A stretch of 15,498 nt of DNA. It comes from a virus (Duplodnaviria > Heunggongvirae > Uroviricota > Caudoviricetes). Made by a program: the position numbers and the translations under genes. The notes below the pieces were generated by a model. It did not search any database and was not told the DNA's origin. It saw nothing but the letters and a program-made list of their open reading frames with translations. Below, one piece after another: positions 5,378-6,793 of the stretch (position 1 is the stretch's first letter; each line of letters begins with the position of its first letter). The stretch lies in IMG/VR virus record IMGVR_UViG_2693429582_000026, one strand, 5' to 3'.

Positions 5378-5784
5378 TCGTACCTCCTGTCGGTAAATCT
5401 GACACCCTGACCAATAGCCCATGCTGTCGTGTACTCAATCAGACTTGCCATACGCTTCACACTCATCTGCGCGCTACTTTCGCGAATGTTGACGTATTCG
5501 CCTTCAAGCCCGGGCAAAACATCAGCTTCCTGTTTTGTTGCCACTGCATGACCGCTGATCAACAAAACCTTCCATTGTTCCGGTTTTAACCATTTTCCGC
5601 ACCATTGAACCTGACGTGCGATATCCGCCAGCATCGCGTGAAATTTTGCGTTCTGGTCAAGGTTGCGCTTGTAGTCAGTAATGCGGATGGTAACTGGCTT
5701 GTCTTTATCGAGTGGTGTTGCGAGGATGGCGTTGATTGCGGCTTGCTGTTGTTGCTTACTTCGGAGGAAGATTGTTTGCTTCAT
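5374..5784 (-). CDS. ninB: NinB (recombination protein NinB/Orf)
   Basis: 136 aa [66 protein letters not shown]... has lambda NinB-like length and motifs (RNLDQN, WxGxWL). Confidence 0.8.
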
Positions 5785-6124
5785 CGAAATTCTTCTCTTT
5801 AATTCCAGCGGCTCTGATAGCTTTCATTACTGCAATTACCGTTTTGTCACGCCCATCCTCATAACCCATCGCATAAGCACCTTCTTCACCATCTTTCCAA
5901 AAGTCGTCATTCGATTCTGGCCAGTCGATATCCAGTTCAATAGCTGCTCGCGATGCCTGCCATAAAGTCCACCACTCATTTAAGGAGTGACGAATATCCA
6001 TGCTTGAAAATGCGAAGTACCTATCACCATTTCTTGCCTCGGTTATCATCTCGAATGGTAATCTCAATTTTTTGGCAACGTATTCCTCAAACTGCTTTCT
6101 TGATTCGTCCATATCACTCTCCAT
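5756..6124 (-). CDS. Hypothetical acidic protein (118-122 aa), part of the ren-ninB insert
   Basis: Track ORF; the better start is the ATG at 6112 (GGAGAG 5 nt upstream). 3' end overlaps the ninB start by 29 nt. No family recognised. Confidence 0.5.
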   Translation of the reverse strand: MESDMDESRKQFEEYVAKKLRLPFEMITEARNGDRYFAFSSMDIRHSLNEWWTLWQASRAAIELDIDWPESNDDFWKDGEEGAYAMGYEDGRDKTVIAVMKAIRAAGIKEKNFDEANNLPPK

Positions 6125-6139
6125 CGATGATTTTTTGGG

Positions 6140-6322
6140 TTACCAATAATATTTGATAGTCGCCATAATTATCGGTAGCAACGCGCAGACAACTGAAAAC
6201 CGTAAAACAAAACCTACTCCCAATATGCGATATCCATTATTCCAGAGAACAAAACTCATCATCAGAAGGAATCCATGAAAAATCGCGACAAGAAATAAAC
6301 TACAAATAAATGCATTTACCAT
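6140..6322 (-). CDS. Hypothetical small 2-TM membrane protein (60 aa)
   Basis: Track ORF, ATG at 6322 with a weak RBS. MVNAFICSLFLVAIFHGFLLMMSFVLWNNGYRILGVGFVLRFSVVCALLPIIMATIKYYW is strongly hydrophobic. AT-rich. Confidence 0.4.
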   Translation of the reverse strand: MVNAFICSLFLVAIFHGFLLMMSFVLWNNGYRILGVGFVLRFSVVCALLPIIMATIKYYW

Positions 6323-6381
6323 CGGTACTTACCACTCGCTCTTAATCCAATAAAAAAGGGTTTGCTTCACTGAACACTCCT

Positions 6382-6567
6382 TTATTTTTTATGCCTGTAA
6401 CCCCATTCTTCCAGCAACCTTGCGGCGTACCACCCAAGAAACAAAGGAAAGAACATTACAATGAGATATTCCCCGCCACGGTCAATGTTCGAAATTGACC
6501 AGATTACGATGTAACCAGTGCAGAACAGGAATATTACAAACCCCAAAAAGCTACTTCGTCGACTCAT
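6382..6567 (-). CDS. Hypothetical small 2-TM membrane protein (about 61 aa)
   Basis: The track ORF starts at the GTG at 6573; the ATG at 6567 has AGGAG 5 nt upstream. MSRRSSFLGFVIFLFCTGYIVIWSISNIDRGGEYLIVMFFPLFLGWYAARLLEEWGYRHKK. Confidence 0.5.
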   Translation of the reverse strand: MSRRSSFLGFVIFLFCTGYIVIWSISNIDRGGEYLIVMFFPLFLGWYAARLLEEWGYRHKK

Positions 6568-6577
6568 GCTCACTCCT

Positions 6578-6793
6578 TCACTTTAAATCCAGACTCCGGA
6601 TTATTCTGTTGCGCTGAAACTCATTGTTGAGTTTGAACAACCGTCGAAGAACACGGTCACGCGGATAGCGTCGTGCGGCAGGTGAATGCTCATACAACTC
6701 ATCAAGCGGCAAACTTGACGATGAACGATACCGATACCAACGCACCAACTCTTCACGAAAATTAGCCCTGACAAGCTCAGCTATCGTACTCAT
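6578..6793 (-). CDS. Hypothetical basic protein (71 aa), first gene of the ren-ninB insert
   Basis: ATG at 6793 with GGAGGA RBS, immediately after the terminator at 6822-6853. Arg-rich: MSTIAELVRANFREELVRWYRYRSSSSLPLDELYEHSPAARRYPRDRVLRRLFKLNNEFQRNRIIRSLDLK. Confidence 0.5.
   Translation of the reverse strand: MSTIAELVRANFREELVRWYRYRSSSSLPLDELYEHSPAARRYPRDRVLRRLFKLNNEFQRNRIIRSLDLK

Follow-up and report, generated by a model that had tools for sequence, protein, structure and literature searches.

The subject of this work is a block of small genes in a stretch of 15,498 nucleotides (nt) from the IMG/VR virus record IMGVR_UViG_2693429582_000026 (the whole stretch is called the window hereafter). 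The window is part of a lambdoid prophage, and the 1.2 kb of it that were tested are 100% identical to the E. coli O103 strain ML775. The block lies on the minus strand at the start of the nin region, between ren and ninB, and it was put together from at least three cassettes: ninA with the terminator tR2 followed by an open reading frame (ORF) of the DUF7301 family (ORF1); an ORF for a protein with two transmembrane (TM) segments (ORF2) followed by a stub of a ninB start; and the 3' end of a different ninA followed by a second two-TM ORF (ORF3) and a phiTE_015-family gene (ORF4). We describe the anatomy of the block, the families and coding status of its genes, its mosaic history and the adjacency of ORF3 to a phiTE_015 gene, and we consider it likely, with a probability of roughly 0.6, that the block is non-essential delayed-early cargo of the pR operon, carried in the variable slot between ninA and ninB and expressed by N antitermination. 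The slot and its mosaicism are classical, and ninA, DUF7301 and phiTE_015 are families that have already been catalogued; ORF2 and ORF3 are new, unannotated small-protein families in a known kind of region, and the recombination scar, the linkers and the link between TM proteins and phiTE_015 that are reported below are incremental.

Mosaic assembly of the block

Eleven reference proteins were used to mark related loci, drawn from IMG/VR, Logan, NCBI and GenBank phages, and 38 gene orders were found among approximately 120 loci in the interval between the replication genes (helicase/ren) and ninB. The cassettes that are shuffled in this interval, across approximately 150 related loci, are DUF7301, TM68 (a two-TM protein of 68 amino acids (aa), phrog_1165), TM106 (a 106-aa one-TM protein, phrog_5903), ORF2, ORF3, and the N- and C-terminal halves of phiTE_015 genes. 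A kinship of TM68 with ORF2 or ORF3 was considered and rejected (BLASTP E = 0.5-2.8). The cassette borders share short sequences that hold the Shine-Dalgarno (SD) sequence of the next gene. For example, the junction between the ORF1 and ORF2 cassettes is an SD-containing linker, CTGGATTTAAAGTGAAGGAGTGAGC (6568..6592, minus strand), and a nearly identical 25-nt sequence, read in a different frame, ends the phiTE_015-family genes (..AAGIKVKE*). The sequence CTGGAATCAAAGTGAAGGAGTGAGC-ATG, which is found at the 3' end of phiTE_015 and, in another frame, at the 3' end of ORF1, precedes ORF2 everywhere and precedes lar in phi24B, and GAGGGTAAGTAYCG-ATG precedes ORF3 and also phiTE_015 where phiTE_015 comes after TM68. 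The idea of linkers or boundary sequences in lambdoid phages reportedly goes back to Susskind and Botstein and later to Clark, Juhala and colleagues, and the junctions described here match it.

The junction between ORF2 and ORF3 is of a different origin. It holds a 13-codon ORF with a strong SD, VKQTLFYWIKSEW (6329..6370, minus strand), which consists of the ninB SD and the first four ninB codons fused at ~6360/6359 to the 3' end of a ninA of the type found in phage Gally. Its first half, TAAAGGAGTGTTCAGTGAAGCAAAC, is the ORF2-to-ninB junction of Gally, 611R6 and phiv205-1, and its second half, CCTTTTTTATTGGATTAAGAGCGAG(G/T)GGTAAGTACCGATG, is the Gally-type ninA 3' end running into the start of ORF3, CCTTTTTTATTGGATTAAGAGCGAGGGGTAAGTACCGATG being the ninA-to-ORF3 junction in Gally-type phages. 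Because the two halves match the ORF2-to-ninB and the ninA-to-ORF3 junctions, the 13-codon ORF is a recombination scar; its interpretation as a leader peptide or gene was rejected, since both halves are traceable to ninB and ninA. Point variants aside, all 34 stored sequences with the order ORF2-ORF3 have the hybrid junction, and so does one additional locus with a different next gene. The cassettes were joined partly at short linkers containing a ribosome-binding site (RBS), and in one case through an illegitimate ninB'-'ninA fusion. Lambdoid mosaic assembly is cleanly illustrated by this locus, in which SD linkers are reused across frames and a scar records one joining event.

The conserved left border of the variable slot is ninA (6790..6882, minus strand), a 30-aa ORF, MTIYITELITGLLVIAGLFIWGRVIGGFKK, with one TM segment (a hydrophobic helix). 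It matches phrog_5907 (E = 5.2e-17) and belongs to the NinA family, and in phi24B and PhiR12_4 an ORF in the same place carries the annotation ninA. The 30-aa ORF overlaps both of its neighbours by ATGA, the ren stop through its ATG and the start of ORF1 through its TGA. The exact ninA sequence was found on 284 contigs, and ninA is present in nearly all related loci, with a C-terminus that varies with the downstream cassette. A preliminary description of the block, which had been made from the sequence alone, listed four ORFs between ren and ninB, and all four are present on the minus strand; ninA and the 13-codon scar ORF had been missed. The terminator that it placed at 6822-6853 was correctly identified as a terminator-like site, the only one in the scanned region 5300-7300, but it lies inside ninA. 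It is the intrinsic terminator tR2 (6822..6853, minus strand), AGGCCTGC-TGGTAATC-GCAGGCCT followed by a T-run, and its sequence is identical to that of the terminator found between ren and ninB in lambda. It has been reported that tR2 is located within the NinA reading frame and that translation near tR2 suppresses termination (PMC4824070).

When the window was compared with NC_001416 40540-40670, the identity with lambda was found to stop after GGGGGAGAG at 6813 and divergence to begin at 6812, which places the left breakpoint at 6812..6813 on the minus strand. The gene order in lambda is ren, ninA with tR2, and then ninB, and the lambda version of ninA is 26 aa long, with a stop that overlaps the ninB start. 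It is therefore incorrect that ren is directly followed by ninB in lambda, as had been stated, because ninA and tR2 intervene. The GC content of the block is 42.3%, versus 46.3% for the window (11th percentile of equal-sized windows), and that of ORF2-ORF3 is 39.6% (8th percentile). ORF3 is the AT extreme, with 35% GC, and its AT bias goes beyond an amino-acid effect because GC at third codon positions (GC3) is only 0.34. The AT-richness of the segment, which had been judged by eye, is thus real but modest. An interpretation of the block as a single AT-rich insert was rejected in view of the internal junctions and of the occurrence of each cassette alone elsewhere. What remains of the proposed horizontal insert is approximately 1 kb of extra exchanged DNA relative to lambda, with divergence after 6813, in the form of composite cassettes with a scar rather than one insert.

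On the plus strand of the window, cI is followed further on by N in the same direction (Pfam, PGAP), and on the minus strand the pR operon runs in the order cro, cII, a frameshifted O, P, ren, the block, ninB, ninE, an ant-like gene, ninG and Q. Cro, CII, N, NinG and Q were identified by Pfam, and P, ren, NinB and NinE by PGAP annotation. The last gene shared with lambda ahead of the slot is ren (6879..7169, minus strand; phrog_142 Ren-like, E = 3.6e-42; PGAP 'protein ren'), which is 99.3% identical to lambda ren in nucleotide sequence. The right border is formed by ninB, the orf recombination mediator (5374..5784, minus strand; PF05772, E = 1.1e-55, and PGAP), which has just 53.5% nucleotide identity to lambda ninB. 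The block is located several genes upstream of Q (2648-2166, minus strand).

The genes of the block

ORF1 (6578..6793, minus strand) encodes a protein of 71 aa, which is basic, with an isoelectric point (pI) of 10.8 and a net charge of +7, and GGAGG is located 9 nt before its ATG, as expected from the earlier account of a basic 71-aa protein with a strong RBS. The protein is a member of Pfam DUF7301 (PF23975), to which it aligns with 91.5 bits (cut-off 27), residues 1-64 corresponding to model positions 1-64 of 65; it also matches phrog_1785 (E = 2.1e-33) and is named 'DUF7301 family protein' by PGAP. In 182 of the 183 matching phage records, which are mostly from Shiga toxin (Stx)-converting phages, ORF1 is at least 90% identical, and in all but two at least 95%; most of the 183 records are without ORF2 or ORF3. 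A single-sequence AlphaFold2 (AF2) model predicts three helices arranged as a three-helix bundle (pLDDT 77.5), and a comparison of this model with the PDB gave no fold match.

ORF2 (6382..6567, minus strand) encodes a 61-aa protein which, from its hydropathy, is a two-TM hairpin with helices at residues ~4-22 and ~34-52 and with both termini basic. Its start is the ATG at 6567 and not the listed GTG at 6573, because AAGGAG is located 5 nt before this ATG and all homologues start there. In a comparison with a 72%-identical homologue (locus L006), dS was approximately 1, the ratio of non-synonymous to synonymous substitution rates (dN/dS) was 0.19, and the synonymous excess was significant (p = 1.4e-4); zero stops or indels were found in 84 copies representing 15 alleles. 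ORF2 has no constant partner: at least five neighbours were found upstream (DUF7301, TM68, TM106, a phiTE-like gene or helicase) and two downstream (ninB or ORF3). Its relatives are few, and its exact sequence was found on 199 contigs. Among species-representative genomes, ORF2 was found, at 98% identity, on one contig labelled as a Bacillota metagenome-assembled genome (MAG). This 10-kb contig, JAEZIN010000021.1 (locus L120; 'MAG: Bacillota bacterium'), also carries the enterobacterial ORF2-to-ninB junction and is most likely a mis-binned enterobacterial phage contig. The label 'Renin receptor-like' on one third-party annotation (TPA) entry for ORF2 was not accepted and is probably an artefact of transmembrane composition.

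ORF3 (6140..6322, minus strand) encodes a very hydrophobic two-TM protein of 60 aa (GRAVY 1.52), with the motif SFVxWxN[GA][YF][RK]xLGxG between the helices. In 58 full-length copies, representing 9 alleles of 80-98% identity, the frame is unbroken and the length is always 60 aa. Distant homologues of 61 aa share 38-41% identity and the loop motif with ORF3. The best of these (41% identity; E = 8.5e-7 when 1.84 billion representative proteins were searched) is encoded in the same slot of another lambdoid phage, one gene from a phiTE_015 gene, and the most distant (38-39%) belong to the early region on the pL side, where no phiTE_015 gene is near. The identity between ORF3 and its distant homologue by codon position is 0.52/0.62/0.38, which is a typical coding pattern, and the substitutions preserve hydrophobicity (Kyte-Doolittle correlation 0.61). 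The SD of ORF3 is weak in the window (GAGTGG) and is GAGGGG in other alleles, and the GAGGGG-type SD travels with ORF3. No copy of ORF3 was found among species-representative genomes.

ORF2 and ORF3 are thus real two-TM protein genes, as had been proposed, with coding support for each. Neither has a match in Pfam, PHROGs, NCBIfam or PADLOC, and RefSeq/PGAP carries no feature at either, so that two real small membrane-protein genes are systematically absent from RefSeq annotation. One or both are present in 214 of 5,426 complete E. coli genomes, including O26 and O103 Shiga toxin-producing E. coli; among these 214 genomes, ORF2 and ORF3 are adjacent in 58 and the whole block is present in 47.

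ORF4 (5756..6112, minus strand) encodes an acidic protein of 118 aa (pI 4.77, net charge -7) and overlaps the start of ninB by 29 nt. The acidity and the overlap had been noted for a protein of about 120 aa; its start is corrected here from the listed 6124 to 6112, because PGAP, the homologues and a GGAG sequence agree on the latter. The identical protein WP_021511842.1 is annotated by PGAP at the same coordinates as 'phiTE_015 family protein', and ORF4 belongs to this family. It has 220 homologues in Escherichia, Salmonella, Hafnia, Cronobacter and Enterobacter, with PF26207 precomputed on 120 of 120 among those listed, and it matches phrog_343 (E = 3.7e-32). The copies of Pfam and NCBIfam that were used gave no match to ORF4, presumably because the model PF26207 is absent from them. 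The AF2 model of ORF4 has a pLDDT of 70.9; Foldseek searches gave no match in the PDB (best E 3.4) and only uncharacterised phage proteins in BFVD (best E 0.011), and a profile search against PDB sequences gave nothing. Neither this model nor that of ORF1 pointed to a function. The statement that none of the four ORFs belongs to a recognised family therefore holds for ORF2 and ORF3, which are without a curated family, but not for ORF1 (DUF7301) and ORF4 (phiTE_015).

The phiTE_015 genes have further peculiarities of their own. In some prophages they occur as tandem or flanking paralogues (L022 2501-3128; L025, L033, L037 and others). They are internally mosaic, with a conserved N-terminal ESRKQFE..W, a WQASRAAIE core and a variable middle, and there are at least four alternative C-termini, all of which end in IRAAG[IV]KVKE.

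Predicted expression and possible function of the block

The ORFs of the block are packed tightly, with gaps of 6-27 nt (the scar ORF left aside) or overlaps, and therefore there is no room for separate regulation. A crude sigma-70 consensus scan found no promoter-like site on the coding strand of 5300-7300, and no terminator was found after the block in a scan of the same region. The one promoter-like site in 5300-7300 covers the ORF3 3' end on the other strand (6140-6169, plus strand; TTACCA-18-CATAAT, 9/12 matches); since 2.9 such sites were expected from shuffles, it is probably meaningless. Because of the tight packing and the lack of a promoter-like site on their strand, the genes should be silent in the lysogen, where cI repression would keep the operon off. 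Expression would then occur only after induction or infection, with N-modified RNA polymerase reading through tR2, and ribosomes on ninA might aid this read-through. The products of ninA, ORF2 and ORF3, with one or two helices each, would be inserted into the inner membrane, the basic ORF1 and acidic ORF4 proteins are predicted to be soluble, and all of the cargo may provide dispensable accessory functions, as does the nin region. The occurrence of the cassettes in the isolated viable phages Gally, HZ41, 611R6 and phiv205-1 speaks for this interpretation.

Several points weigh against the interpretation of the block as delayed-early cargo or limit what it says. A promoter that is weak or non-canonical and lies within coding sequence could have escaped the promoter scan. 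The replication gene O (7864-8735, minus strand) is split into two overlapping frames and is labelled 'frameshifted' by PGAP, and the prophage may be replication-defective, in which case the nin-region genes might never act in a productive cycle of this strain. Among close alleles of ORF3, dN/dS is 0.64-0.85, with 9 synonymous versus 19 non-synonymous variant sites (p = 0.15). Finally, the functional class of the cargo is a guess from location and composition: accessory proteins of the early phase, which would alter the host envelope or would compete with host defences or with other phages, rather than toxin-antitoxin or lysis proteins. Such a role is favoured because the same slot carries Lar anti-restriction genes elsewhere, namely in Stx phages and in an Enterobacter prophage.

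There is a modest chance that ORF3 and ORF4, and by analogy TM68 and phiTE_015, form a functional two-component unit, in which an acidic soluble protein would, early in infection, be anchored or regulated at the inner membrane by its tiny two-TM partner. A phiTE_015-family gene is located 16-31 nt 3' of every ORF3 examined (58 full-length copies, three apparent exceptions included), in all contexts and even with very different partner sequences. In 61 distinct phiTE_015 contexts from IMG/VR, which were picked without reference to ORF2 or ORF3, a two-TM mini-protein is encoded directly upstream of phiTE_015 in 46 (75%), these being TM68 in 32 and ORF3 in 14, two unrelated families. In a Cronobacter prophage, an unrelated 47-aa two-TM ORF likewise overlaps the phiTE_015 start, and the 41%-identical homologue of ORF3 is encoded in the same slot and only one gene away from phiTE_015. 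However, the loci share descent and the slot is tiny, so that the adjacency may be simple linkage: ORF3 moves jointly with the conserved 5' part of the phiTE_015 gene, and it is within this gene that the mosaic breakpoints are found. Furthermore, phiTE_015 genes occur without a TM neighbour in the Stx2 phage 1717 and in Hafnia and Enterobacter prophages, and the most distant ORF3-like proteins are encoded on the pL side, away from any phiTE_015 gene. The earlier suggestion that small membrane peptides are paired with charged partners is thus retained for ORF3, for which an ORF4-type gene is the constant neighbour, but not for ORF2. We are doubtful of a broader version, in which two-TM proteins (ORF3, TM68 and their analogues) and the acidic phiTE_015 proteins would make up an unrecognised, widespread two-component early module of enterobacterial temperate phages that acts at the inner membrane, for instance against a membrane-associated host defence or incoming phage DNA, ORF2 being a stand-alone member of the guild. 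The recurrence of unrelated two-TM mini-proteins upstream of phiTE_015 is a lead to the function of a widespread family.

It is unlikely that ORF2 and/or ORF3 are superinfection-exclusion or injection-blocking proteins, which would be comparable in principle to T4 Imm or HK97 gp15. They have the properties of small inner-membrane-type proteins in dispensable, rapidly shuffled cargo, they are encoded close to ren, which is itself annotated as an exclusion protein, and several unrelated small membrane-protein families gather in the slot. However, the four ORFs matched no toxin, antitoxin, holin, exclusion or defence family in Pfam, PHROGs, NCBIfam and PADLOC; in particular, PADLOC returned 0 families for all four ORFs, and ORF2 and ORF3 gave no exclusion or defence profile in PHROGs. 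In addition, no promoter was found for expression from the repressed prophage, where exclusion would pay most.

An even smaller probability is given to ORF3, and a lower one to ORF2, being a chance frame in an AT-rich spacer that is carried along with the phiTE_015 gene. The dN/dS of close ORF3 alleles, which is not significantly below 1, the weak SD in the window and the fact that ORF3 has never been annotated by PGAP would agree with this explanation, but the conservation of length and frame over all copies and alleles, the homologues of the same length with the loop motif (the best of them in the same slot), the codon-position pattern, the preserved hydrophobicity and the stronger SD in other alleles argue against it. 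For ORF2, it is contradicted by the low dN/dS and the significant synonymous excess.

The block had also been likened to toxin/antitoxin and holin-like modules. With respect to type II toxin-antitoxin systems, no co-inherited pair was found except for the ORF3-phiTE_015 adjacency, and there was no promoter-like site and no toxin or antitoxin domain; with respect to type I systems (Hok/Ldr/TisB-like), there was no toxin-family match, and a search of the block with Rfam gave no antisense RNA, either at the gathering threshold or with the limit relaxed to E <= 1, although a novel antisense RNA could escape such a search. Three sub-threshold Rfam matches (E <= 1), which were to a Trp leader over ninA/tR2, a small nucleolar RNA (snoRNA) and TeloSII, were rejected as chance. 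With respect to holins and antiholins, no holin match was found in Pfam or PHROGs, and the position of the block, ahead of ninB, ninG and Q in the early operon, differs from that of lambdoid lysis genes, which follow Q. Small hydrophobic proteins do lie beside highly charged ones, and the opposite-strand site at 6140-6169 might in principle start a transcript antisense to the ORF3 3' end, but a toxin-antitoxin or abortive-infection module (ORF2 or ORF3 as the toxin, restrained by ORF1 or ORF4) or a holin-like lysis function is the least probable explanation of all, in view of the inconstant partners of ORF2, the occurrence of ORF1 mostly without ORF2 or ORF3, the lack of a detected family, antisense RNA, own promoter or own terminator, a count of promoter-like sites below the shuffle expectation, two TM helices where type I toxins typically have one, and a location in the early operon, with several genes between the block and Q.

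Matches to known nin-region genes, which the preliminary description had itself named as evidence against its proposal, were found for ninA, ORF1 and ORF4. Delayed-early cargo of the pR operon is the interpretation that we prefer; the current understanding of lambdoid phages is unchanged by it, and no defence, toxin or lysis function is indicated.

Other features of the window and comparison with known systems

Some features outside the block were recorded. Directly downstream of cI and on the same strand, in the position of rexAB in lambda, a 332-aa ORF (10288-11286, plus strand) with no credible Pfam match and no PADLOC family is a candidate lysogen-expressed gene. Within the nin region, the segment 4186-5171 (minus strand) is a P1/P7-type antisense-controlled antirepressor module, in which a P22AR/ant-like ORF is preceded by three elements identified by Rfam: isrK (5082-5158), a C4 antisense RNA (4973-5056) and the a1b1 target of the latter (5119-5171). 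The Q-distal part contains the small RNAs AgvB (448-509, plus strand) and STnc100 (510-703, minus strand), three tRNA genes (1476-1724, minus strand) and a TerB-domain ORF (872-1375, minus strand).

In the literature, no paper was found that names DUF7301, phiTE_015, the phi24B/933W locus tags or the peptide strings, and the same families and strings are absent from the supplements of the accessory-gene screen PMC12373910. ORF2 and ORF3 resemble type I toxins (Hok, Ldr, TisB), class II holins and the exclusion proteins Imm, Sp, SieB and gp15 in being small, hydrophobic membrane proteins borne by phages or prophages, but they differ from all of these in that no sequence or profile similarity, antisense RNA or own promoter was found, and in their early-operon location.

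The organization of the block is like that of the nin region of lambda and P22, in which ren or a helicase gene is followed by ninA with the embedded tR2, the cargo and ninB, with the same position and strand logic. The nin genes are non-essential and tightly packed (PMC8022706). As in lambda, the packing involves ATGA overlaps, and the 5' part of ninA and tR2 are identical to those of lambda, with ren at 99.3% nucleotide identity. Unlike the locus described here, which holds approximately 1 kb with four genes and a junction scar, lambda has no cargo in the slot.

Compared with Stx-converting phages (933W, phi24B, Min27 and 1717), in which the order is ninA - DUF7301 - Lar - ninB, ninA and ORF1 are 97-100% identical and in the same place, and the same linker follows ORF1. 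These phages differ from the window in being without ORF2 and ORF3 and in usually having Lar instead. In the Stx2 phage 1717, DUF7301 is followed directly by a phiTE_015 gene with the N-terminus of ORF4, with no membrane ORFs between them. In the same phage (L003), the first ~50 residues (VKSWCVGIGIVHR...) of the coding sequence annotated as 'Lar-like' (2471-2896) are an alternative-frame reading of a second, partial copy of DUF7301, and the annotated start is probably too far upstream.

The phages Gally (P22-like, Lederbergvirus), 611R6, phiv205-1 and HZ41 have neither DUF7301 nor the scar, and their gene orders differ from that of the window, being ninA - ORF3 - phiTE-like - ORF2 - ninB in Gally and TM68 - phiTE-like - ORF2 - ninB in the other three. 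They carry ORF2 at 95-97% aa identity with the same linkers, and the ORF3 of Gally is 100% identical to that of the window.

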